From assembly GCA_964412315.1 (NCBI GenBank), contig CAYPON010000004.1:2180-36215 (forward strand): a stretch of DNA of 34,036 bases, given 5' to 3'. A program made the translations under genes and the position numbers. The notes under the pieces were generated by a model that saw only the letters and a list, made by a program, of their open reading frames with translations, did not search any database and had not been told where the DNA came from. Below are positions 1,462 to 31,678 of this stretch, in pieces (within the stretch, counting starts at the first letter, position 1; every line of letters begins with the position of its first letter). Origin of the DNA: an uncultured Anaerolineae bacterium (GTDB taxonomy: Bacteria > Chloroflexota > Anaerolineae > JAAYEA01).

Positions 1462-2004
1462 TCACCCCATCCCTCTCTCTAATTCGCTGCACAATCTGCT
1501 CATCAGCGGCAGGGGCAGGCTCTGCCCACCGTCCACATAGATGATCTGGCCGGTGACGAACTCCGTTTCGTCGGAGACCAGGAAAGCCACCACTTGGGCG
1601 ACATCCACCGGAAAGCCCACTCTCCCCCAGGGCACCTCCCTGTCCATCTTGCCACGGTCGTATTGGAGATTGGTGACGTAATAGCGGGGCACCTCGATCA
1701 CGCCGGGGGCGATGCAATTGACATTGATGTGTTGCCTTGCCAACTCGAAGGCCATCTGGCGGGTCAGGTTGTGCAGCCCACCCTTGCTGGCGGCGTAGGC
1801 GGCGTTGCTGGGCAGGGAATGGGCGCCATGTACGGAGCCGATGTTGACGATCTTGCCGCCGCCGCGGGCGATCATGTACTTGATGGCAGCCTGCGAGCAA
1901 AAGAAGGCCGCTTTCAGATTGATGTCAAGGGTACGATCCCATAGGTTCCACGTTCCACAGCGAGCGTCGGTAAATGCGATGCCGCTTGTACCATTCCACG
2001 CCAA
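1462..2004 (-). pseudogene. N-terminally truncated short-chain dehydrogenase/reductase (SDR) remnant
   Basis: NIGSVHGAHSLPSNAAYAASKGGLHNLTRQMAFELARQHINVNCIAPGVIE...VAFLVSDETEFVTGQIIYVDGG is the catalytic and C-terminal part of a classical SDR, with Ser and YxxxK intact. Homology only starts at the NNAGI-equivalent (WNGTSGI). The Rossmann TGxxxGxG region (~85 aa) is absent. The listed start is a TTG, the frame closes 2 codons further upstream, and 1925..2004 is overlapped by the neighbouring gene's 3' end. Confidence 0.6.
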
Positions 2005-3073
2005 TAGCCGTCATGTCGCCCAGGCTTTTGGCGTTCTTCTCTTCGACCTGTACAATGTCAGCATGTTCAAAATGGAACTCTTTGATGCTCTTGGCTAGCT
2101 CGGTGAATAGTATGGCGTCACCGCCTACGCCCTGATGTCCAGGCAACAGGCCAAGCCCGTTACCGTTGACCCATTTCGTCCGCTTAAATTCCAGCAAAAG
2201 GTGAATCCAGCCAAATGGCCACAGCCGCCCTTTGATCCTTTGAATCGCTGCTGAAAGATCAGGGAAAGCGAAAGCAAAACCAATGATCTCATCGCCCTTC
2301 ATCACCAGCTTGATGAGACGCGGATCGGAGACCTGTGCCAGCCGCTCGGCAACGACCTGCAACTCTTCATCGGAAAGCGGAAAATACTCGTAATTGTCAA
2401 CAAAAGCGTCGTTGGCCACCCGGCCAATGCGTGGAATCCACTGGCGTAGCTCTTTCATGCTGGTGAAGGATTTTATGCGCAGGCCACGCCGCTCCTTGAT
2501 CTTTTCGGCGATGTCGAAGAAGCGTTGCGGTAGTTCATAGTCGCCGCGCAAATACCCGGACAGGAAATCCGTATCCTTCTCGAATCCCGAATCTCGCACA
2601 AAGGCATCGTAGTAGGCATAGTTGTATGGGATGCCCATGGCGGGTCGGTGCTCGAATCCTTCCACCAAAAGCCCCAGGCCATCTCCCTCCATGAAGCCGC
2701 GCGGGCCGATCATTTCGTTTAGCCCGCGGCTCCGCGCCCAATCGAAAGCAGCGTTAAAGAGGGCACGCGCCACTTTAATGTCCTCTACTGCATCGAAGAA
2801 GTAGAAGAAAGCAGTGCGGCGATGATGGTAGTCGTTATAGCTGCGGTGATCCAGCACGGCGATGCGTCCCAGAGTCTTTCCGTTGCTCTCGGCGACGAAA
2901 AAGTCGGCGACGGAATGGCGGTAAAAGGGATATTTCCTGCAGTTCAGGACCAGCTCCATGTCCGAGACAATGGGTGGCACCCATTGTGGGCAGTTGTGGT
3001 AGAGCTTGAAGGGAAAGTTGATGAATTGGCGAACATCCTGTCCCCGCTGGGTATCCAACTTACGGACTTGCAT
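1925..3073 (-). CDS. GNAT-fold N-acetyltransferase-like protein (uncharacterised ~380-aa family)
   Basis: 382-aa ORF with ATG at 3073 and GGAGGG 6 nt upstream. The N-terminal pattern (FINFPFKLY..CPQWVPP...K.PF..H....FFVAE..GK.LGRIAVLD) and the length fit a recurrent uncharacterised GNAT-like family. The assignment is from memory of the family, not a search. Confidence 0.6.
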   Translation of the reverse strand: MQVRKLDTQRGQDVRQFINFPFKLYHNCPQWVPPIVSDMELVLNCRKYPFYRHSVADFFVAESNGKTLGRIAVLDHRSYNDYHHRRTAFFYFFDAVEDIKVARALFNAAFDWARSRGLNEMIGPRGFMEGDGLGLLVEGFEHRPAMGIPYNYAYYDAFVRDSGFEKDTDFLSGYLRGDYELPQRFFDIAEKIKERRGLRIKSFTSMKELRQWIPRIGRVANDAFVDNYEYFPLSDEELQVVAERLAQVSDPRLIKLVMKGDEIIGFAFAFPDLSAAIQRIKGRLWPFGWIHLLLEFKRTKWVNGNGLGLLPGHQGVGGDAILFTELAKSIKEFHFEHADIVQVEEKNAKSLGDMTAIGVEWYKRHRIYRRSLWNVEPMGSYP

Positions 3074-3588
3074 ATTTGCCCTCCAGTCACTCTCTCCCTC
3101 AATTTTCCGAAGCCAGGTGAACGTTCCTGGCCTGCCGATAGCTTACACCAATTCGCTCAAGCTGTCGAATCACGGCCTCCGGACGATTGCATTCTCGCTG
3201 CGAAGCATCTGACTATACCCCATTTGACTTTTACACGAAACAGATTATCATATTAGTTAGTTGTAAAAAAGGAGGTAACAGTTATATGACGTTTCGTCTC
3301 CATGGTGGCTGACAAGAGTGGATGTATGCATTGATGAAATCTCTGTAATCTTGGGTGCGTAGGGAAAACCTTTTCACGTTCTCTGCTGTTTGATGAGGGG
3401 CAGCAAGCCACTTCAAACCTTTCATTATGAAATTCCTGTTATATAGATGCAGATAATTTTTCATATTCTGTTCATCATTTCGCGATATAATAGATAGTTG
3501 AAAAGGTATCTTTTTGTCTTTTTCCTGGCCTCAATGGGCCTGGGCATCTTGTAAGGCTTATTGCGCGGAGTAACCGCATGGGGGGGAA

Positions 3589-8440: not shown

Positions 8441-9460
8441 TTATCCTCCTGAGGTCGTCTCGAACCATTGGTTGATCGAGTATTCCGGTTCAAAGCCGAT
8501 CAGCTTCCTCGCTTTGTCAATGCTCACCAGAGATTCGTCCTTCTGGACAGGACGTTTCCAGGTCTTGACCTCCGGGAAGAAAGTATTGACCAGGAGTTGG
8601 GAGGGTGCGCCGAGCATGTTGCGGCTGTCATTGACGAACAGGGGATGGCTGCCGTCGTAGTCGGCCAGCAGCGCCTTTTCGATGGCCTGTGCCGAATCCC
8701 TGGCATCAATTGTGGCCCAGAAATTGCTTCGCCCCATGATGTGGAGCGCATCGGGCGCGTCCCACCTCTGCCTGGAGAAGGGCTTTTCCGAGGCCCTCTC
8801 TGCCCGCATAGCTTGAAACCGGACAATGATCTGACGCACGCGCCCCTGCCGTTCTGCATCCGGCAAAGCCAGCAGTCCCTCCCAGGCACTACGGAGGTGG
8901 GAGATAAAGCCTCGCATCCTGGGTTGGACGTCTTCCGTGGCTTCGTAAACCCAGGGTAGACGCAGGCAGACCCCGGAGATGCCCTCGCGACGCCGGAAAT
9001 AGGCGGCGATCTCTTCCACGATCTGTTTGGAGAAGGAATAGGCGTCTGTCGTATAAACGGGATGTTCCTCATCCATGGGGAAGTAGAGGATGGGAAACTC
9101 CTTGATGCCGAAATTGTAGCCCAGCGCGTTGATAGAGCTGGCGCTGACGACTCTCTTGATCCCTTTGCTCGCTGCCGCCTGGTAAACGTTGAATGCGCCG
9201 GCACAGTTGATGCGAAAGATCTCCTGCCCAGGGGCGAGGGCGGGGTGGGGGATAGCGGCCAGATGCACCACCGCCTCCATGCCCTCCATCTGTTGGCACA
9301 GGCCATCGTAATCGGTGATGTCGCACGTGCGGTAATCGGCGCCCTCGATCACGATCCCGGCGCGCCGCCCGATCACTCTTACCTCGTGTCCATGTTTGAC
9401 CAGCCGTGTGACAGCAGCGCGGCCCACATTTCCGGTGCCCCCGGTGACAAGAATCTTCAT
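8441..9460 (-). CDS. NAD-dependent epimerase/dehydratase (extended SDR)
   Basis: MKILVTGGTGNVGRA Rossmann motif and YSFSK (YxxxK). The start overlaps the upstream stop as ATGA (9457..9460). Confidence 0.85.
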   Translation of the reverse strand: MKILVTGGTGNVGRAAVTRLVKHGHEVRVIGRRAGIVIEGADYRTCDITDYDGLCQQMEGMEAVVHLAAIPHPALAPGQEIFRINCAGAFNVYQAAASKGIKRVVSASSINALGYNFGIKEFPILYFPMDEEHPVYTTDAYSFSKQIVEEIAAYFRRREGISGVCLRLPWVYEATEDVQPRMRGFISHLRSAWEGLLALPDAERQGRVRQIIVRFQAMRAERASEKPFSRQRWDAPDALHIMGRSNFWATIDARDSAQAIEKALLADYDGSHPLFVNDSRNMLGAPSQLLVNTFFPEVKTWKRPVQKDESLVSIDKARKLIGFEPEYSINQWFETTSGG

Positions 9461-10623
9461 TTTTTCTCCTTGTAATCATCCCGCGCCTGCATCATCGCCC
9501 ACACGTTTTCGGGCGGCGTGCCAGGGAGGATAGTGTTGCTGCAGCCGTGGAAATAGCCGCGGCCTTCGCTCGCTTTCAGGATGCTCATGCAGTGAGCATA
9601 CACCTCCTCGCGCGAGCCACGGCGGATCAGGTCGCCGCTGGCATTGGCCCAGATGATCAGGTGAGGGTATCGCTGGCGAATCCTGCTTAGCTCCATCGTC
9701 GCCTCGTAATCCACCTCGCCATAGCCGGGGATGCCCGCCTCTAGGAAGATCATATCGCTCACCTGCCAGATGTTGCCGTCGGTGCGCCAGACGTAGTGCA
9801 ACTCTAGCTCTCGGCAACGGTCAGCCAGTTTCTTCAGGCGGGGCAGCATGAGCCGGCGGAACATTTGCGGGGAGTAGAGCGGCCCATTCTTGTCCGCCAT
9901 GTCCCCGCCGCCCAGGACGACCTTGATGCCCCGTCGGGCGATGGCTTCCATTTGGGCGAGGGCAATCTCCAGTTGGCAATCGAGGATGTCGCCGACAGCC
10001 TTCGCTTCCAGCGCTGCCGCCATGAGCGACGCCTCGTCCACGCCAAGAGACAGCCCTCCACCACCGGCAACGACCATCATCTCCTCTCCCAACCGTGCCT
10101 GAAGCTGCGCCTCGACGAGGCCGGCGTTCTCGTGCGCGTTTTGCACTGCTGCGTCCACTTCCTTCTGTCGCTGCCGCGCCAATTCCGGCCAATCTTCAGG
10201 CCGCAGCGGTGGCGCAGTGTTTTTGACCTCAATGAAGTTCATCACCTCCACGTCCCACCGCCATATCTGATACACGCCGTCAGGATCGCCGGAAAGGAAA
10301 GTGTGCTCGTTAAGCTGAGCAACCGGTTTGATGTTTCTGCGCCAGCCGAAGCGAAAAACCTCCATGCCCAACACGCGGTGCAGCTCGAGAAGGTCTTCTT
10401 CGTACTTGCGCTCGAACTCGGCGTGGGCCTCCTTACCCGCGATCCAGGCTTTGGCTTCCGCGTACCAAAGGGAGGGGCTGCCCGTATGCACTGGCCGGCC
10501 CAGTATCTTGCTGGCCACGTCGCAGGCGATGGTCGGTGTGTAGGCTGGCACGCGGTCGGGCACGCGGCCTTCCAACGTTGCCAGGCAACGCGTATAAGGG
10601 GTCATAGAAGGTGATAGGTTCAT
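9457..10623 (-). CDS. uroporphyrinogen-decarboxylase (URO-D)/MtaA-CmuA-like family protein
   Basis: N-terminal LEGRVPDRVP and C-terminal GDLIRRGSREEV...GYFHGCSNTILPGTPPENVWAMMQA follow the URO-D family pattern. The start is set to ATG 10623 (MNLSPSM), 1 nt after the upstream stop. The track start 10689 overlaps the methyltransferase gene. Confidence 0.65.
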   Translation of the reverse strand: MNLSPSMTPYTRCLATLEGRVPDRVPAYTPTIACDVASKILGRPVHTGSPSLWYAEAKAWIAGKEAHAEFERKYEEDLLELHRVLGMEVFRFGWRRNIKPVAQLNEHTFLSGDPDGVYQIWRWDVEVMNFIEVKNTAPPLRPEDWPELARQRQKEVDAAVQNAHENAGLVEAQLQARLGEEMMVVAGGGGLSLGVDEASLMAAALEAKAVGDILDCQLEIALAQMEAIARRGIKVVLGGGDMADKNGPLYSPQMFRRLMLPRLKKLADRCRELELHYVWRTDGNIWQVSDMIFLEAGIPGYGEVDYEATMELSRIRQRYPHLIIWANASGDLIRRGSREEVYAHCMSILKASEGRGYFHGCSNTILPGTPPENVWAMMQARDDYKEKK

Positions 10624-10624
10624 T

Positions 10625-11365
10625 TTACCGACGCGCCAGGACAACGAGGCGTTTGGCTGTGTGATCGTAGGGGGAGCCATCGAGGCCACCGTATGCCTCG
10701 GCGGCCATGAAGCCGCTGCTGATCAGGAGCGAGATCAATTCGGTGGCGGCGTAGAGGCGATGGCTAAGCCGATGCTCAACGCGCTCGTTGCCTCTGATGA
10801 TGATCCAGCGATTCTCCATCCAGCCCCAGTTGCGGGTTACTTTCCGCTCCTCGAGGACGATCAGGCCATTGTCCTCGTGCCAGCCGCGTGGTTGGAAAAT
10901 CCGCGCGAGGATCTCTTTGCCCATCATTTCTACCAGCAGTGCGCCGCCCGGTTTCAGAGAATAAGCCAGGTTCTCCGCGACGCAGCGGTCGTCAGCGGGG
11001 TCCTCGAAGAAACCGAAGGAGGTGAAGAGATTGAGCGCCACGTCGAAGGCGGCAGGGCGGCGAAATTCACGCATGTCGGCCTGTACCCATTCGACGTCGA
11101 GGCCCTCGCCAGCCGCCCTTCGCTGCGCCTCGGCTAGGTAAGCGGCAGTGCGATCCACACCGGTCATGCGGTAGCCGCGTCGCGCCAGTTCCAGCGAGTG
11201 CCTTCCCACGCCACAGCAGAGGTCGAGTACATGCATCCCAGGCTGGAGGCCGGCCAAGGCGGTGATCTTGTCCACTTCCTCTGGGGCGGCGGCCCAGCGC
11301 CGCTCTCCGAACATCACCTGTGCGGTGTCTCGCCAAAAAGCGTCATCTTCGTGCCAGGGCTTCAT
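10625..11365 (-). CDS. class I SAM-dependent methyltransferase
   Basis: Motif I VLDLCCGVGRHSLELARRGYRMTGVD, post-I and motif II regions (FDVALNLFTSFGFF), and AAGGAG upstream of ATG 11365. Confidence 0.85.
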   Translation of the reverse strand: MKPWHEDDAFWRDTAQVMFGERRWAAAPEEVDKITALAGLQPGMHVLDLCCGVGRHSLELARRGYRMTGVDRTAAYLAEAQRRAAGEGLDVEWVQADMREFRRPAAFDVALNLFTSFGFFEDPADDRCVAENLAYSLKPGGALLVEMMGKEILARIFQPRGWHEDNGLIVLEERKVTRNWGWMENRWIIIRGNERVEHRLSHRLYAATELISLLISSGFMAAEAYGGLDGSPYDHTAKRLVVLARR

Positions 11366-24059: not shown

Positions 24060-25181
24060 TCAAGTGGCGCTTCCAGGTCTGGCGTGCGCCCATTTTCCTT
24101 GCCAGAGGTGGTAAATCGCCAGGCCTGCCACAAAGCCGAGGGCCATGTTAGTCCCCACAGAGATGGCGCCCGTGACTACCATAATGGCCAAATCTGCGCC
24201 TCGCAGATCCAGTCCGAACTTGCCGAGTTGAAAGGCAACGACGATCATCATGCCACCGATGATAGCCATAGGAAAAGCGGCAAACAGTCCCGTGAGAGAG
24301 CCACCGAGGAACACGCCCAGCCCGATTTCAATTAAACCCTCGATAATGTTTGTGCCACCCGTTCGGGCGCCGAAATAGTATTGCCCTGCTAGGCCCCCTG
24401 CGCCGTGGCACATCGGCATCCCGCCGAAAAGGGGGCTGATGACGTTCATCACGCCCATATTGAGCATCAGCCGCTTGGGTGGCACTGGCTTGTCTGGGAA
24501 GTACTCTTGCAGGAGTGCGCTGGTGGCGAGGATGGCGTTGGTAATGCTGAGTGGGATTTGTGCCAGGCCCGCACCGACCATGGCCGGCCAGATTTCCCGC
24601 CAGGAAGGCAGGATGAGAGGCGGAGGCGTGAAGCCAAAACGGAGGTTGGGCCAAAGCGTTCCCTGCCAGGCCGAGATGGCCAAGCCCAGGCCCATAAGAA
24701 CCAGGGCCGCCGGAGCACGCGGGTTGTCCTTCAGTACCAGAGCCAGCAACACCGCCAGGAGACCCAACCACCAAGCTTCCCTGGCCATGCCAAATCCCGT
24801 GATGAAGAGCTGGATGCCCAGGGCAAGCTGAATGCCGCGGATGACGCTTTTCGGCGTCCAACGGGCCAGGCGATCAATGAGGCCAGTAATGACAAGCAGA
24901 AACCAGGTAAGGCCAAGCCCAATGCCCGAGGCGTAGATTCGCTCCGGTGACCAGCGGCGCGCGATTGCTACGGCGGCGATGACTTTTTTCGGTTCGACGG
25001 GCATCGGCAGGTGATACACCAACCCAGTGACAATGTTGGTCATGCCCATCATGAAGAAGAGGCCGGCAGGGTTCATACGGTTCACGACGATGTAGCCGAT
25101 GGCAAGAGGAAAAAGCGTGCCAAAATCGCCCATGGAGCCGGCAAGCTCGCGCAGATTGAACTCGAAATCGCGGATTCGCAT
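24060..25181 (-). CDS. MOT1/MOT2-family (SulP-related) putative molybdate/sulfate oxyanion transporter
   Basis: GDFGTLFPL and PMPVEPKKVIAAVAI match the family hallmarks (GDLGTxxP ... PVQPMKxIxA). Polytopic membrane protein. AGGAG upstream of ATG 25181. Confidence 0.65.
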   Translation of the reverse strand: MRIRDFEFNLRELAGSMGDFGTLFPLAIGYIVVNRMNPAGLFFMMGMTNIVTGLVYHLPMPVEPKKVIAAVAIARRWSPERIYASGIGLGLTWFLLVITGLIDRLARWTPKSVIRGIQLALGIQLFITGFGMAREAWWLGLLAVLLALVLKDNPRAPAALVLMGLGLAISAWQGTLWPNLRFGFTPPPLILPSWREIWPAMVGAGLAQIPLSITNAILATSALLQEYFPDKPVPPKRLMLNMGVMNVISPLFGGMPMCHGAGGLAGQYYFGARTGGTNIIEGLIEIGLGVFLGGSLTGLFAAFPMAIIGGMMIVVAFQLGKFGLDLRGADLAIMVVTGAISVGTNMALGFVAGLAIYHLWQGKWAHARPGSAT

Positions 25182-25419: not shown

Positions 25420-25454
25420 ATGAGTTAAACACTTGCAATGAAAAGGAGATCATC

Positions 25455-25847
25455 ATGTGCGGTGGACACCACGGTGAGGCGAGAGTGATTTGTTGTCCGA
25501 CAGGGGAGCGGGTGCGCGGCTTTATTCAGCCCTGGCTTCTCTTGCTCCTTTTGCAGAGGCCAAGCCACGGCTATGAGTTGATGGAACGACTGTCCCAGAG
25601 CGAAGAGGCGCCGGGTGCCGATCCCGGCCTCCTCTACCGTACACTGCACCAACTGGAGGGGGAGAGGCTGGTACGCTCGGCATGGGACACTGAGGGAAGC
25701 GGCCCGGCACGACGACTGTATCAGGTGACGTCGGAAGGGGAGGAATATCTCCACGCCTGGGCGGTGAACATCCGCCGGACAAGGGAACGGTTGGATCATT
25801 TCCTGGCAGAATATGAAAAGCATTTTCGGAATGAAGAAAGGAGGTGA
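25455..25847 (+). CDS. PadR-family transcriptional regulator with Cys/His-rich N-terminal extension
   Basis: Winged-helix core IQPWLLLLLLQRPSHGYELMERL...LYRTLHQLEGERLVRSAWDTEGSGPARRLYQVTSEGEEYL. AAGGAG 6 nt upstream of ATG 25455. The N-terminus is MCGGHHGEARVICCP. Confidence 0.85.
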   Translation: MCGGHHGEARVICCPTGERVRGFIQPWLLLLLLQRPSHGYELMERLSQSEEAPGADPGLLYRTLHQLEGERLVRSAWDTEGSGPARRLYQVTSEGEEYLHAWAVNIRRTRERLDHFLAEYEKHFRNEERR

Positions 25848-26147: not shown

Positions 26148-26177
26148 TTGACGCCGTCCGTTGTTATGTCGTATAAT
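26148..26177 (+). promoter_or_regulatory. candidate promoter for the M55 peptidase gene
   Basis: TTGACG (26148..26153), 18-nt spacer, TATAAT (26172..26177). Confidence 0.45.
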
Positions 26178-26231: not shown

Positions 26232-27047
26232 ATGAAGATCTACCTCATGACCGATTTGGAAGGGGTGGCGGGCGTTCTGAATTTTGAGGATTGGTGTACG
26301 CCTAACTCGCGCTATTACGAGGTAGCAAAGGAGCTGCTGACACGGGAAGTCAACGCGGCAATAGAAGGCTTCTTCGCAGGAGGGGCGACAGAAATCGTCG
26401 TCGCCGATGGCCACGGACATGGCGCGGTCAATCCGCTACTCCTCGACCCTCGCGCGGAGTTGATGCGGGGTTGGCCGCAGGGGTGGCCGCTTTTGCTGGA
26501 CAAAAGCTATGGCGCCGTGGCCTGGGTGGGGCAACATGCCAAAGCCGGCACCGAGTATGCTCATCTGGCGCATACACAATCGTTCAGTTATTTGGACCTT
26601 TCCGTCAATGGCCTCTCCATCGGCGAGTTTGGGCAGTTCGCTTTATGCGCGAGCGAGTTGGGGGTGCGCGGGATATTCCTGTCGGGGGACCGCGCTGCCG
26701 CCGAGGAAGCTCGCCAGCTTCTCCCTGGTATCGAGGCTGTCCATGTGAAGCGGGGCACGACGCCAGGCACAGGGGATGAGCTGGAGACGGAGGCCTATGC
26801 CAAGCGAAACGTAAGCGCGATCCACCTTCATCCGCAAAGGGCACGCGTTATCATCCGCGCCGGGGCGGAGCGGGCCATGCGGCGGGCAGCAGTGGAGCAT
26901 TTCGGTCTGATCGAATTGAAGCCACTCTTCACGCGGGTGGCGCGCTTTCGCGCCGAAGGTGATAAGCCGCGCACTATAGCTACGGAGACCCATCCTTCCA
27001 GCGTAATCGCACTCATGAACATGCTTTATGAGCAAAAACCGATGTAA
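26232..27047 (+). CDS. M55-family D-aminopeptidase (DppA-like)
   Basis: MKIYLMTDLEGVAGV, EVNAAIEGFFAGGATEIVVADGHGHG, GQHAKAGTEYAHLAHTQS and GVRGIFLSGD follow the peptidase M55 pattern. The track start 26082 adds 50 non-homologous residues. Confidence 0.8.
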   Translation: MKIYLMTDLEGVAGVLNFEDWCTPNSRYYEVAKELLTREVNAAIEGFFAGGATEIVVADGHGHGAVNPLLLDPRAELMRGWPQGWPLLLDKSYGAVAWVGQHAKAGTEYAHLAHTQSFSYLDLSVNGLSIGEFGQFALCASELGVRGIFLSGDRAAAEEARQLLPGIEAVHVKRGTTPGTGDELETEAYAKRNVSAIHLHPQRARVIIRAGAERAMRRAAVEHFGLIELKPLFTRVARFRAEGDKPRTIATETHPSSVIALMNMLYEQKPM

Positions 27048-27050
27048 ACC

Positions 27051-27116
27051 TTCGGCTATTAGCTTGCAGCGTCAGCCCAGAAGCTGATGGCTGAAGGCTG
27101 ACAGCCGACAGCTACA
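27051..27116 (+). repeat. GCTGA-heptad intergenic repeat, copy A (5' leader of the MGD::MT gene)
   Basis: TTCGGCTAT...GTCAGCC..AGAAGCTGA TGGCTGA AGGCTGA CAGCCGA CAGCT is colinear with copy B at 30547..30610. It contains a 7-bp pairing GTCAGCC (27071..27077) / GGCTGAC (27096..27102). Confidence 0.55.
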
Positions 27117-27133: not shown

Positions 27134-29149
27134 ATGAAGAGAATCCTGATTCTAATGAGTGATACCGGTGGCGGGCATCGCGCCTGTGCGCAGGCGCTAC
27201 AGGCAGCCTTCCGGGAGCGGTATGGCGATGAATACCGGGTGGATGTCCTAGACATCTGGATGGATTATACGCGGTGGCCGCTGAACCAGATGCCGAAAAG
27301 CTATCGTTTCCTGATAAATGATGTGCCCTGGATGTGGAGGTCTATGTGGGAACTGGGCGAGAGGCCCCAGGCACTGGAGTTGGCGATCGGTGTGTGGTCG
27401 CACTGGTCCCGGAAGCCGGTCAGCCAGGTCATCGCGCAACATGATCCCGATCTGCTCATTGCGGCGCATCCCCTGATGCAGGATTTGACCTTGCGCATCC
27501 TGGCGCAAACCAGACGGAACATCCCCCTGGTGACTGTGGTGACCGACCTGGTTTCCATCCATCCCATCTGGTTTCGGCGAGAGGCTCTCCGCTGTTTTGT
27601 GACGAGCGACGAGTCCTATCGTCTGGCCTTGCAGGCTGGTCTGCCTCCTGACAGCGTGCGCCAGTATGGCCTGGCTGTGCGTCCTGCCTTTGCCCGCGAG
27701 GCTCCGCCAAAGGAGCAACTGCGCCCTACCTTGGGCCTGCGGCCTGACCTGCCCGTCGCACTGCTCACGGGTGGAGGGGAAGGGATGGGGCCGATCGGAG
27801 CCATTGCTCAGGCAGTGGCTGGGCGATTGGCAGCGGAGGGTCAGCCCAGGGGACAACTGGTAGTGATCTGCGGCAGAAATCGCAAGCTCCAGCAGGAGTT
27901 GCGTGGGCGGACCTGGCCGATCCCTACCATCATCAATGGCTTTGTGGACAACATGCCGGATTGGATGGCTGCCAGCGATTGCATCATCACCAAGGCTGGC
28001 TCGGTCACTATCGCCGAGGCTATGGTGTGCGGGCTGCCGATCCTGCTTAGCGGATATATCGCTGGCCAGGAAGAAGGCAATATACCTTATGTAGTGGAAA
28101 ACGGCATCGGCGTATATAGTCCGCATCCGCAGCGCATTGCCGAGGTCGTGGGCAATTGGTTCGGGCCGGAACGGGCCAGACTGGAGGAAATGGCGCAAAA
28201 GGCGCGTCGCATGGGCCGCCCACAAGCCGCTTTCCAGATCGTCCAAGATATCGCTGGCCTTCTGGCAGAAATGCCCACTGGCGACCTCGCTAGTCGCAAG
28301 CTTCACGCTCGCGCTTCTGCGGAAGCCGTTGCGCCTCAGCCACCCAGTCCCTTCGTGCGGGAATATTATGACCAAAACGCTGCTCGGGAATGGGAAAGGC
28401 TAGAAGGCCCTTTCAGGAAGCTGGAATTCCTGAGCACATTCCATCTTTGGGACAAATACTTCCCCAAGACCGGGCATGTCTGCGACATTGGCTGTGGCCC
28501 GGGCCGGTACGCTATTGAACTCTTGAAGCGGGGCTACCGGGTGACCCTGTTCGATTTTTCTTCCGAATCGCTGGCTCTGGCTCGCGCCAAGATCGCTGAG
28601 TTGGGCTTGCGGGCCGAGGAGTATATTTGCGCCGACGCCAGGAATTTAAGCAGCTTGGGCGACGACGCTTTCGATGCTGTGCTCCTCATGGGCCCCATGT
28701 ATCACGTGATCCGCAAAGAGGAGCGGCTGGCGATCCTGCACGAGACACGGCGCATCTTGAAGAAGGGTGGCATGGCCATGATCGCCTACATCAATGCCTG
28801 GGGCGCCATTCGTGCGGGCATCACGGGATTCTCTGATAGTTACGCCGATATTGGTCATCTCCGCTCATTGCTGAACGAAAAAGTGTACGAGGGACCGGGC
28901 AAGGTTTTCACAGAGTGCTACCTCACTACGCCGCCGGTTGCGCTGGCTGAGGTTAGGGATGCCGGTCTGGAGGTGCTCAGCTACGCAGGAGTGGAGAGCT
29001 TTGCTGCCGGACTGCGAGATGGCATGAAGGAACTGGCGGCCAACAAGCCTGAGGTGTATGCAAACGTGTTGCAGGTGGCGGCAGAGTGCTGCGAATTGGA
29101 GCAGTATCGGGATGTCACGGAGCATCTGCACATCATTGCGCGGAAATGA
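27134..29149 (+). CDS. fusion protein: plant-MGD1-type monogalactosyldiacylglycerol synthase (GT28) + class I SAM-dependent methyltransferase
   Basis: aa 1-~395: MKRILILMSDTGGGHRACAQALQAAF, VTVVTDL, GLAVRPAF, LLTGGGEGMGPI, VVICGRNRKLQ and CIITKAGSVTIAEAMVCGLPILLSGYIAGQEEGNIPYVVENG are nearly colinear with MGD1-type MGDG synthases. aa ~410-671: VCDIGCGPGRYAIELLKRGYRVTLFDFS (SAM motif I) and FDAVLLMGPMYH indicate a methyltransferase. It is one uninterrupted ORF. Confidence 0.85.
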   Translation: MKRILILMSDTGGGHRACAQALQAAFRERYGDEYRVDVLDIWMDYTRWPLNQMPKSYRFLINDVPWMWRSMWELGERPQALELAIGVWSHWSRKPVSQVIAQHDPDLLIAAHPLMQDLTLRILAQTRRNIPLVTVVTDLVSIHPIWFRREALRCFVTSDESYRLALQAGLPPDSVRQYGLAVRPAFAREAPPKEQLRPTLGLRPDLPVALLTGGGEGMGPIGAIAQAVAGRLAAEGQPRGQLVVICGRNRKLQQELRGRTWPIPTIINGFVDNMPDWMAASDCIITKAGSVTIAEAMVCGLPILLSGYIAGQEEGNIPYVVENGIGVYSPHPQRIAEVVGNWFGPERARLEEMAQKARRMGRPQAAFQIVQDIAGLLAEMPTGDLASRKLHARASAEAVAPQPPSPFVREYYDQNAAREWERLEGPFRKLEFLSTFHLWDKYFPKTGHVCDIGCGPGRYAIELLKRGYRVTLFDFSSESLALARAKIAELGLRAEEYICADARNLSSLGDDAFDAVLLMGPMYHVIRKEERLAILHETRRILKKGGMAMIAYINAWGAIRAGITGFSDSYADIGHLRSLLNEKVYEGPGKVFTECYLTTPPVALAEVRDAGLEVLSYAGVESFAAGLRDGMKELAANKPEVYANVLQVAAECCELEQYRDVTEHLHIIARK

Positions 29150-30315
29150 GCAAAATGATCTATTTCGATAACGCCGCGACCTCCTGGCCGAAGCCGCCGG
29201 GGGTGATCGAAGCGATGGTACGCCATATGACCGAAGTAGGTGCCAATCCCGGCCGCGCCGGCCATCGTCTCTCCCTAGAAGCTGGGCGGATTATCTACGC
29301 TACACGCGAGGCCGTGGCCGAACTGTTTCATGCGCCTGACCCGTTGCGCGTCGTCTTTGGTCAGAACGTGACTGACGCGCTCAACCTGGCCTTATGTGGC
29401 TTCCTGAGAGCAGGCGATCATGTCATCACCAGCAGCCTGGAGCACAATTCTGTGATGCGGCCTCTGCGCGCTCTGGAACGGGGGGGTGTGGTGGTGACGG
29501 TGGTGCGCTGCTCCGCTGAGGGGTATCTCGACCCCGCTGACGTAAAGGTGGCCATCCAGCCCCAGACGACGCTTATCGCCCTCAACCATGCTTCAAACGT
29601 GATCGGGACGCTATTGCCAGTGGCTGAGGTGGGGCGCATCGCTCGCGAGCACGATCTCCTCTTGCTGGTGGATGCAGCGCAGACCGGCGGCGCATATCCA
29701 ACGGACATGCAGGCCAATCATATTGACCTGTTGGGCTTCACCGGGCATAAATCGCTCTACGGGCCGATGGGCACCGGCGGGCTGGTCATCGGCGAGCGAG
29801 TTCCTTTAGCTCGCCTGCGGCCTCTCAAGCGCGGAGGCACAGGAAGCCGTTCGGAAGAAGAGGAGCAGCCTGACTTCCTGCCCGACTTGTACGAAAGCGG
29901 CACGCCAGCCTCCAGCCCCGCTAATCCGACAGCATTCGGCGTGCGCTGGGTGCTGGCGCGGGGGGTGGAGGCGATCCGTGCCCACGAGATGGCACTCACT
30001 ACACGGCTGATAGATGGGCTGCGGAAAATTCCTGGTGTGACCATCTACGGTGGGCTGGAAGCGTGCCGCCAGGTGGCAACCGTTTCTTTCAACGTCGCAG
30101 GCCTGGATCCAGCAGACGTGAGCCAGCGGCTGGATGAGGAATATGAGATCATGTGTCGTGCCGGGCTGCATTGCTCCCCTGCGACACACAAAACCATCGG
30201 CACCTTTCCGCAAGGGACGGTGCGCTTCGGGCTGGGATTCTTCAACACGGAACATGAGGTTGATGCTGCCCTCGCCGCCGTGCGCGAGATCGCGAGGAGC
30301 GGATATGGACGATAA
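29146..30315 (+). CDS. class-V aminotransferase-fold cysteine desulfurase / selenocysteine lyase family protein (short-N-terminus subfamily)
   Basis: MIYFDNAATSWPKPPGV, FTGHKSLYGPMGTGGL (PLP-Lys), GGTGSRSE..QPDFLPD..ESGT and AGLHCSPATHKTIGT..GTVRFG.GFFNT. ATG 29146 overlaps the upstream stop as ATGA. ATG 29155 is an alternative start. Confidence 0.85.
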   Translation: MSKMIYFDNAATSWPKPPGVIEAMVRHMTEVGANPGRAGHRLSLEAGRIIYATREAVAELFHAPDPLRVVFGQNVTDALNLALCGFLRAGDHVITSSLEHNSVMRPLRALERGGVVVTVVRCSAEGYLDPADVKVAIQPQTTLIALNHASNVIGTLLPVAEVGRIAREHDLLLLVDAAQTGGAYPTDMQANHIDLLGFTGHKSLYGPMGTGGLVIGERVPLARLRPLKRGGTGSRSEEEEQPDFLPDLYESGTPASSPANPTAFGVRWVLARGVEAIRAHEMALTTRLIDGLRKIPGVTIYGGLEACRQVATVSFNVAGLDPADVSQRLDEEYEIMCRAGLHCSPATHKTIGTFPQGTVRFGLGFFNTEHEVDAALAAVREIARSGYGR

Positions 30316-30541
30316 GCCAGCGCAAAAGTACGCTGTCATCCTGGCTTATAGCACCAGCCGCGCGCTGCGGGCGGAAAAGCTCCTGCTGGGAGCAGGAATT
30401 TCCTGCAAACTGATCCCTGTACCGCGTCACCTCAGCTCCGATTGTGGTGTCTGCCTGCGCATTGACAAAACGGACGAGGCTCGTGCCCGGCAAGTGCTAG
30501 AGGCAGCCAAGATCGAGATCGAGGGCATTCACGATTTTTGA
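30305..30541 (+). CDS. DUF3343-family putative Se/S carrier protein
   Basis: 78 aa. YAVILAYSTSRALRAEKLL...CKLIPVPRHLSSDCGVCLRI carries the DUF3343 hallmark LxPxPRxxSSxCG. ATG 30305 overlaps the desulfurase 3' end by 11 nt. Confidence 0.7.
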   Translation: MDDKPAQKYAVILAYSTSRALRAEKLLLGAGISCKLIPVPRHLSSDCGVCLRIDKTDEARARQVLEAAKIEIEGIHDF

Positions 30542-30546
30542 GAACT

Positions 30547-30610
30547 TTCAGCTATCAACGGTCAGCCATCAGCCAGAAGCTGAAGGCTGAAAGCTGATCG
30601 CTGACAGCTT
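30547..30610 (+). repeat. GCTGA-heptad intergenic repeat, copy B (5' leader of selD)
   Basis: TTCAGCTAT...GTCAGCC.ATCAGCCAGAAGCTGA AGGCTGA AAGCTGA TCGCTGA CAGCT. It contains a 7-bp pairing GAAGCTG (30577..30583) / CAGCTTC (30604..30610). It ends 18 nt before the selD ATG. Confidence 0.55.
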
Positions 30611-30628
30611 CCGAAAGGGGTGAACGGC

Positions 30629-31678
30629 ATGGCCGACAACAAGATTCGCCTGACGGCCCTGACCAGCGCGGCGGGCTGAGCAGCCAAAATGGCCCCTCAG
30701 GCCCTGGCGCAGGTGCTGCGCCCGCTGCGAGAGCTGTTTCATACCGAACAATATCCTAATCTCCTCGTCGGCCTGGATGAGAGCGATGATGCCGCCGTTT
30801 ACAAGATCAACGACGAAATGGCGATCATCCAAACGCTCGACTTTTTCACGCCGGTTGTGGACGATCCCTACGATTACGGGACCATCGCCGCCGCGAACGC
30901 TATGAGCGACGTCTACGCTATGGGCGGCGAGGTGGTCTTGGCCTTGAATATCTGTGGCTTTCCACCAGACCTTCCACCGAGAATGATCGCCGAAATCCTG
31001 CGCGGCGGCGCGGAGAAGGTACGGGAGGCGGGAGGGGCCATCGCCGGTGGCCACACCATAGACGACAAGGAGCCGAAATATGGCCTGGCCGTGATGGGCC
31101 TGGTTCATCCGCGCCGCGTGCTCACCAAACGAGGCGGTCAGCCAGGCGATGTCCTGATCCTGACCAAGCCGCTGGGCGTGGGGATCATCACCACCGCCTT
31201 CAAGGGGGATGCGGCCAATCCGGCGCACCTAGCCGGGGCGGTAGAGAGCATGAAGCGGCTCAATCGCCACGCTGCTCGTCTTTTCCAGCAGGTTGGCGTC
31301 CATGCCTGCACCGACATCACCGGCTTTTCCCTCTTGGGCCATAGCTCTGAGATGGCGGAAAAAGGCCAGGTGCGGCTCCGCTTTTTCCTGAATCGGCTCC
31401 CTTTCCTGGAGGGAGCACGAAGCTATGCCAAGGAGTGGCTTTTCCCCGGCGGAGCCTGCCGAAACAAAGAGCATTATCAAGGCGGCGTGGATTTCGCGCC
31501 GGAAATCACAGAAGAGATGCAGATGCTCCTTTTTACTCCGGAAACCTCCGGTGGCCTCCTCGCCGCCGTCGCTCCGGGCAAGGTGGATGCGCTCGCGGCT
31601 CTCTTCGCCGGGGAAGGGGAGCCTTGCTGGGTCGTGGGCGAAGTGCTGGAGGGAGAGGGGATCGAAGTCCTTCCATGA
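30629..31678 (+). CDS. selD: selenide, water dikinase (selenophosphate synthetase), selenocysteine-containing form (TGA codon 17 = Sec)
   Basis: The track ORF (30689..31678) has GLDESDDAAVYK and DFFTPVVDDPYDYGTIAAANAMSDVYAMGG, typical of SelD, but lacks the catalytic N-terminal loop. The same frame upstream reads ATG(30629) ADNKIRLTALTSAAG TGA AAK M(30689). This restores the G-[C/U]-x-x-K loop with U17/K20 at the positions of E. coli C17/K20. AAAGGGG lies 8 nt upstream of ATG 30629. Confidence 0.85.
30677..30722 (+). other. UGA-Sec recoding site plus candidate bacterial SECIS hairpin
   Basis: TGA at 30677..30679. A perfect 7-bp stem GGCGCAG (30706..30712) / CTGCGCC (30716..30722) carries a GUG loop. 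The loop begins 33 nt after the UGA with G as its first nucleotide. Confidence 0.55.

Follow-up and report, generated by a model that had tools for sequence, protein, structure and literature searches.

The 34,036-nucleotide stretch of contig CAYPON010000004.1 analysed here (the window), from an uncultured Anaerolineae bacterium of the Chloroflexota, encodes at 27134..29149 (+) a 671-residue protein in which a predicted MGD-type glycosyltransferase (GT) of the GT28 family is joined to a class I S-adenosylmethionine (SAM)-dependent methyltransferase (MT) within one open reading frame (ORF). The fusion is genuine and lineage-restricted, occurring in a small group of uncultured sediment Chloroflexota related to Anaerolineae/Caldilineales; its domains are of known kinds, and their combination in one protein is new. 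We favour, at a probability of about one half, the reading that read-through joined two enzymes which still act independently of each other and that the fusion is tolerated or slightly beneficial, with co-expression and membrane tethering as its consequences.

According to the ORF listing, the gene starts with ATG, is uninterrupted and has zero internal stops. The encoded protein comprises three segments: (i) the GT domain (aa 1-378; 27134..28267, +), a putative MGD1-like hexosyl-diacylglycerol synthase supported by the alignment with the Arabidopsis MGD1 structure 4wyi, the ratio of non-synonymous to synonymous substitution rates (dN/dS) and a predicted local distance difference test score (pLDDT) >90; (ii) a Pro/Ala-rich interdomain linker predicted to be disordered (aa 379-407; 28268..28354, +), recognised by alignment, dN/dS and pLDDT; and (iii) the MT domain (aa 408-671; 28355..29146, +), of the CmoM/TM1389-like family, supported by Pfam, AF2, Foldseek and dN/dS. 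In Pfam, MGDG_synth (PF06925; aa 15-182, 108.5 bits, gathering cut-off 25) is followed by Glyco_tran_28_C (PF04101; aa 210-305, 39.3 bits, gathering cut-off 22), the canonical order for MGD-type GT28 enzymes, and the C-terminal half matches Methyltransf_25 (PF13649; aa 449-546, 74.2 bits, gathering cut-off 27), the Methyltransf_25/11 matches together spanning aa 449-549 above their gathering cut-offs. All the motifs quoted by the first-pass annotation of this DNA, namely SDTGGGHRA, GGGEGMGPI, ICGRNRKLQ, IITKAGSVTIAEA, GYIAGQEEGNIPYVVENG and DIGCGPGRYAIELLKRGYRV, are present in the ORF, and its statement that the methyltransferase continues the GT frame with no stop or frameshift is borne out by the single 671-residue frame.

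Metagenomic contigs may be chimeric, and one relative of the fusion, P0005, does look so; nevertheless, the explanation that a sequencing or assembly frameshift, or a chimera, has joined two separate genes has a practically negligible probability. Logan contigs from three independent sediment-metagenome runs, belonging to different samples and studies, span 27.8-28.6 kb including the junction and differ by substitutions only, with zero indels, which supports the junction. In addition, three further full-length fusion proteins from other samples share 60-62% identity with the window protein across 100% of its length and have their domains in the same sequence: P0002 (670 aa), P0003 (703 aa) and P0004 (680 aa). 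The four proteins align without frame problems, the GT and MT blocks each being 61-69% identical; linker residues 379-407 vary in both length and sequence (8-53% amino acid identity). For the least saturated pair of fusion genes, those of loci L002 and L003, dN/dS amounts to 0.13 in the GT domain, 0.19 in the MT domain and about 2.3 in the linker: both domains are under purifying selection and the linker evolves freely. The artefact is thus ruled out by the three indel-free runs and the three divergent full-length homologues, with an in-frame GT-MT architecture common to four divergent genes and a reading frame and selection that hold across both halves.

The AlphaFold model of the full-length protein displays pLDDT >90 in both domains and <50 for aa 386-398, with a predicted template modelling score (pTM) of 0.63, compared with 0.92 for the MT domain by itself. 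The low linker confidence and the drop in pTM therefore point to two domains that each fold well and are flexibly tethered, no interface between them being predicted with confidence.

Such an architecture is exceedingly rare. Of the 2,274 scored homologues drawn from 5.8 billion proteins, only four clusters at 90% identity contain both halves, the remaining homologues being stand-alone GTs of ~380-420 aa, 52-62% identical and, where named, from Chloroflexota. When 1.84 billion representatives at 50% identity were searched exhaustively with HMMER, a single one matched residues 1-671, the window's own cluster, all other hits covering either aa 2-380 or aa 405-671. No fusion occurs among the best 80 matches in GTDB, searched with one genome for each of 185,579 species; these come from Caldilineaceae, Caldilineales, Anaerolineae and related metagenome-assembled genomes, and all stop at about residue 380. 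The possibility of a common and already annotated architecture is ruled out by these counts; the source names are generic, as in the JGI label '1,2-diacylglycerol 3-beta-galactosyltransferase'. The earlier remark that no GT28-methyltransferase fusion had been characterised also stands, since literature searches yielded no paper describing an MGD-MT fusion and the fusion protein scores below the cut-off of every curated NCBIfam model.

The only conserved neighbour of the fusion gene is a Peptidase_M55 gene encoding a DppA-like D-aminopeptidase (26232..27047, +; PF04951, 169.6 bits). In the three other lineages, represented by the complete loci L001, L002 and L003/L004, an M55 gene 73-77% identical to that of the window lies directly upstream on the same strand, the fusion gene following it by 16-40 bp. 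A further metagenome locus, L103 (Ga0129297_10018078, 1831-3457), displays an M55 gene (89% identity) ~30 bp upstream of a GT (81% identity) that runs off the contig at aa 261; with ~80% nucleotide identity, no other locus among the matches listed comes closer to the window genes. The metagenome scan that returned L103 is not exhaustive, as it did not return the known fusion loci. Neither an M55 gene nor this methyltransferase was found within 6-8 kb of any of 164 stand-alone GT loci (84 + 80).

The GT half is almost colinear with MGD1-type synthases, as had been noted from the sequence at the outset: residues 2-377 align end to end with residues 6-384 of the AtMGD1 chain 4wyi_A (E=2e-116, 392 bits). 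The UgtP-type structure 9wde scores 95 bits, and the UgtP equivalog model PRK13609 of NCBIfam scores 148.3 bits against a cut-off of 500, so that the GT half is not a member of that family and the term 'plant-type' is apt for its fold family. UgtP/YpfP, the processive diglucosyl-diacylglycerol synthase (9WDE), is alike in its MGDG_synth/GT28 fold and its class of lipid acceptor but matches the GT half far more weakly than MGD1 does. Arabidopsis MGD1 (4WYI/4X1T) and the Chloroflexus/Roseiflexus MGDs share with the GT half its colinearity, the His of the GGGH loop and the W-P LOOP motif, whereas they are devoid of the C-terminal linker and the 264-residue methyltransferase.

The GT half preserves the equivalents of key MGD1 residues (MGD1 numbering being the 4wyi chain index + 136), including H15 (H155, the catalytic base), H112 (H251), D138 (D279), W146 (W287) and K287 (K430, whose role we take to be the one given in the MGD1 structure paper), together with T11 (T151), R16 (R156) and the W48-P49 pair corresponding to the W188-P189 of the membrane LOOP. 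H15, H112, W146, K287, E313 and N316 are invariant in 120 homologues and D138 is kept in 118 of them. The roles of the catalytic residues of AtMGD1 have been described (PMC7419546), including that of H256, whose exchange for Ala leaves <5% activity (PMC7419546). The GT half carries Asp117 at this position, which is occupied by E, D, Q or H throughout the Chloroflexota clade; this variability rules out Asp117 as a sign of inactivation and suggests that the need for H256 is plant-specific. By homology, the GT half would work like the plant/Chloroflexus MGD1, as a monotopic GT-B enzyme at the membrane surface: His15 would deprotonate the sn-3 hydroxyl of diacylglycerol and the hexose of a uridine diphosphate (UDP)-sugar would be transferred to yield beta-hexosyl-diacylglycerol. 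Among the paralogous MGDs of Roseiflexus, the donor is UDP-Gal or UDP-Glc, or the enzyme attaches a second sugar, and Chloroflexi MGDs are regarded as the origin of plant MGDs (PMC3276260); the GT half enlarges this clade, the supposed source of the plant galactolipid synthases.

The MT half displays the sequence hallmarks expected of a class I SAM-dependent methyltransferase: SAM motif I (DIGCGPGRY) is intact, as is the acidic residue of post-I, D474 (in TLFDFS), both are conserved in the alignments, and a class I Rossmann core is accompanied by a C-terminal lid. The AF2 model of this domain (pLDDT 94.9, pTM 0.92) finds only class I methyltransferases among its top Foldseek matches, the best being CmoM (8joz, template modelling score (TM) 0.78) and TM1389 (2avn, TM 0.77). 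Both E. coli CmoM (8JOZ/4HTF), a tRNA cmo5U34 carboxyl methyltransferase, and TM1389 match the whole MT half including the lid, with a root-mean-square deviation (rmsd) of 3.1-3.2 Å, but are only 20-21% identical to it, and no RNA-binding evidence was found for the MT half. The structure of Thermotoga TM1389 was solved in 2005 and, to our knowledge, no function has been assigned to it. Assignment to a named family was rejected, the best NCBIfam models being CpaM (59 bits, cut-off 180) and CmoM (PRK11036; 52.3 bits, cut-off 366). Stand-alone homologues of the MT domain, of ~270 aa and 49-63% identity, form a large and widespread family with only generic source names, its members coming from Paenibacillus, Clostridium, Alkaliphilus, Bipolaricaulota and metagenomic Chloroflexota. 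Many of the polar residues that lie away from the SAM site do not vary in these homologues (NxWG, FTE and RDxTEHLH), indicating a specific, conserved substrate pocket.

We propose that the fusion most probably arose when a glycolipid-synthase gene was read through into a methyltransferase gene directly downstream, the former intergenic spacer presumably becoming the disordered Pro/Ala linker of ~25-35 aa, and that the MT half most probably acts on the same substrate as its stand-alone orthologues. Because that substrate is likely shared, the fusion would provide co-expression and membrane tethering, not a demonstrated two-step pathway. Three lines of evidence disfavour metabolic coupling. First, the stand-alone orthologues are nearly as close to the window MT domain (58-63% identity) as the other fused copies (64-66%), yet reside in contexts that contain no GT, and they also occur in phyla without MGD-type enzymes. 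The stand-alone proteins P0121, P0123 and P0124, which account for this 58-63%, lie beside URO-D/SDF, GH1/AcnX or mixed genes, the nearest in the tree, P0239 and P0178, directly follow GatD/GatE-like genes, and in none of the eight loci examined does a GT adjoin the stand-alone MT. Second, the GT family has other one-off C-terminal fusions, with Creatininase (P0009), Metallophos (P0241), HD (P0312) and an EamA transporter (P0243); these proteins extend an MGD-type GT at the C-terminus as the window protein does, which suggests that this terminus tolerates read-through fusions, but their partners are unrelated and each is a single database entry, compared with four full-length lineages and the truncated L103 for the MT fusion. 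Third, no fixed interdomain interface is predicted. If the halves are not coupled, the protein documents a neutral read-through fusion persisting under selection.

Several points weigh against this reading. Long retention, at ~60% amino acid identity, and purifying selection on both halves are also expected of a coupled bifunctional enzyme; Rosetta-stone fusions often connect steps of one pathway; and Firmicutes with the stand-alone MT also make glycosyl-diacylglycerols. An origin of the fusion from a widespread adjacent GT-MT pair was rejected, no such pair being found in the 164 stand-alone GT and eight stand-alone MT loci, and, as no ancestral pair was found, the read-through origin is deduced only from the length and variability of the linker. 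Furthermore, strict monophyly of the fusions is upheld by neither tree: the smallest split of the GT tree containing all four fusions also takes in P0005, and monophyly of the four fused MT domains reaches 75 of 200 bootstrap replicates in the MT tree. Because P0005 disturbs the GT tree and the MT bootstrap is weak, a single origin is argued mainly by the common M55 synteny.

P0005 is encoded on a 2.6-kb JGI contig; its N-terminal ~300 aa are close to P0002, whereas the last ~120 aa match the stand-alone GT P0043 exactly, with the changeover in the conserved motif CDCIITKAGPGTIAEA. The metagenome contig is thus probably a chimera.

The same retention to ~60% identity and the purifying selection on both halves invite a second explanation, namely a coupled bifunctional enzyme in which the tethered MT O-methylates the head-group sugar, or another part, of the just-made hexosyl-diacylglycerol to give a methyl-hexosyl-diacylglycerol. 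The flexible linker of 25-35 aa would let the MT reach a product at the membrane surface. Among the lower structural matches are the sugar 4'-O-methyltransferases RebM and AtmM (Foldseek E about 1e-13), which show the highest sequence identity of all matches (24-25%), and the PDB entry 6uv6, a 'D-glucose O-methyltransferase', matches the MT core with E=2.7e-6. The superposition with RebM/AtmM reaches a TM of only 0.55-0.57 at an rmsd of 7.5-9 Å, against 0.78 for the tRNA methyltransferase CmoM. Sugar-O-methylated glycolipids are known in mycobacteria, where separate class I methyltransferases make them (PMC3594219). RebM, AtmM and the mycobacterial phenolic-glycolipid methyltransferases, as class I enzymes acting on a sugar hydroxyl of a glycoconjugate, provide a functional analogy for such a methylated glycolipid; they are stand-alone proteins, however, with secondary metabolites or mycobacterial lipids as substrates, and the common fold of RebM/AtmM is all the homology seen. 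Against the coupled enzyme also stand the absence of a GT beside the 58-63% identical orthologues, the absence of the MT from the 164 stand-alone GT loci, the full-length pTM of 0.63 and a literature in which no methylated glycosyl-diacylglycerol was found. With its orthologues free of GTs and the GT loci free of MTs, glycolipid methylation is advanced here as a hypothesis only, and we regard the coupled enzyme as a tentative possibility, the main rival of the favoured reading.

A narrower version, a self-contained two-step machine for O-methylated hexosyl-diacylglycerol in which the GT glycosylates and the tethered MT caps a sugar hydroxyl, appears doubtful. Sedimentary lipids serve as biomarkers, and coupled halves would imply that sediment Chloroflexota make a methylated glycolipid not seen before, and would open a way to the function of the widespread MT family that includes TM1389; the two-step machine, if true, would add a class of membrane lipids as yet unreported from bacteria and provide the first substrate assignment for the large TM1389-like MT family.

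A non-catalytic MT domain, serving as a SAM sensor or as a membrane- or partner-binding scaffold that modulates glycolipid synthesis, would find a precedent in the regulation of MGD1-type enzymes by the lipid effectors phosphatidic acid and phosphatidylglycerol (PMC7419546), to which tethering could add a metabolic input. This regulatory role is improbable, however, given the intact SAM motif I and post-I residue, the invariant NxWG, FTE and RDxTEHLH motifs with the conserved substrate pocket that they indicate, and a dN/dS of 0.19, typical of an active enzyme.

Downstream of the fusion gene, the window contains three selenium-related genes: (i) a TIGR01977-family cysteine desulfurase/selenocysteine-lyase-like gene (29146..30315, +; 442.9 bits, cut-off 377), on which the SclA model scores 376 bits, below its cut-off of 525; (ii) a small Se/S carrier-like protein (30305..30541, +; PF11823, 84.3 bits); and (iii) selD, encoding selenide, water dikinase (30626..31678, +; TIGR00476, 365.5 bits when scored from 30689 onwards). 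As reported in the first-pass annotation, the fusion and desulfurase-like genes overlap in ATGA, the stop TGA occupying 29147-29149 and the next ATG 29146-29148; a second ATG at 29155 is an equally good fit to the start of the TIGR01977 model, in which case 5 nt would separate the two genes. A promoter-like site, TTGACG-18-TATAAT (26148..26177, +; 11/12 in a consensus scan), lies upstream of the M55 gene and is a possible start of a transcription unit over the M55, fusion and selenium genes, and no terminator-like site was found between the M55, fusion and desulfurase-like genes.

The overlap had been taken to link the fusion gene translationally to a selenium module. In such a module the MT would, for example, methylate selenide set free by the neighbouring lyase, or the GT would make a seleno-glycolipid, with translation coupled to that of the lyase. 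Besides the ATGA and the lack of a terminator-like site between the genes, copies of one palindromic element stand ahead of the fusion gene and of selD alike, and the MT core shows a generic, sub-threshold likeness to some selenoprotein methyltransferase domains. The translational link does not hold up in the relatives: no SelD, desulfurase or carrier gene occurs within 2-10 kb of the fusion gene in L001-L004, the downstream genes being LysE, a GNAT acetyltransferase and an aldo-keto reductase, so that the proximity of the selenium genes is a peculiarity of this genome. The GNAT gene of L002, though unrelated, likewise overlaps the fusion stop by 4 nt, which makes the ATGA overlap a matter of generic tight packing. 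The selenoprotein-MT models of NCBIfam reach 35-40 bits against cut-offs of 380-510 and cover the Rossmann core only, and the palindromic element is missing from the other complete fusion loci. We consider membership of a selenium module very improbable; the adjacency would instead reflect a local rearrangement of this genome, and the case illustrates that inference from a gene neighbourhood needs checking in relatives.

The palindromic element, ~60-70 nt long, consists of GCTGANN heptads arranged around a CAGAA loop. Copy 1, of ~60 nt, occupies the M55-fusion spacer (27051..27110, no strand assigned; RNA folding free energy -33.5 kcal/mol, z -3.96) and copy 2 the spacer upstream of selD (30542..30611, no strand assigned; -32.8 kcal/mol, z -5.12), with 81% column identity between them; together they bracket the block of fusion gene, desulfurase and Se carrier. 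No further copy was found in the window or in any of 96 loci examined, the four complete fusion loci included, and the ~30-bp M55-GT spacer of L103 has no room for it. It may be a genome-specific element resembling repetitive extragenic palindromes.

Among the stand-alone MTs, P0239 (L095, 6001-6819) and P0178 (L096, 1772-2593) lie downstream of archaeal-type tRNA amidotransferase GatD/GatE-like genes, a tRNA-related context that fits the CmoM-like fold and is represented by two related contigs only. The window itself harbours a second, unrelated class I methyltransferase gene (10625..11365, -), which overlaps a URO-D/MtaA-like gene (9457..10689, -) and is adjoined by DegT aminotransferase and epimerase genes; its product is 41% identical to the fusion MT in the SAM core only. 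URO-D/MtaA-like genes are also repeatedly close to class I MT genes elsewhere (L001, L003, L005/L006, L008/L009 and L011), both near stand-alone MT orthologues and in two fusion loci, a recurrence that may be meaningful or may stem from the many paralogues that these genomes carry.

Just upstream of the block comprising M55, fusion and selenium genes lie an MFS_MOT1-type molybdate transporter gene (24060..25181, -) and a PadR regulator gene (25452..25847, +). Molybdate uptake beside SelD, desulfurase and Se carrier recalls selenium-dependent molybdenum hydroxylase systems; no molybdenum hydroxylase gene was found in the window.

The selD gene reads MADNKIRLTALTSAAG-TGA-AAKMAPQ, the in-frame TGA (30677-30679) falling exactly at the active-site Cys/Sec position, so that SelD is probably a selenoprotein and its start lies upstream of the 30689 given in the ORF listing. 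Scans of the window with Rfam and for tRNAs gave zero matches, with no tRNA-Sec among its features. A 7-bp GC hairpin (GGCGCAG-GUG-CUGCGCC) lies ~27 nt 3' of the selD TGA, in a region whose folding energy is ordinary (z -0.88).

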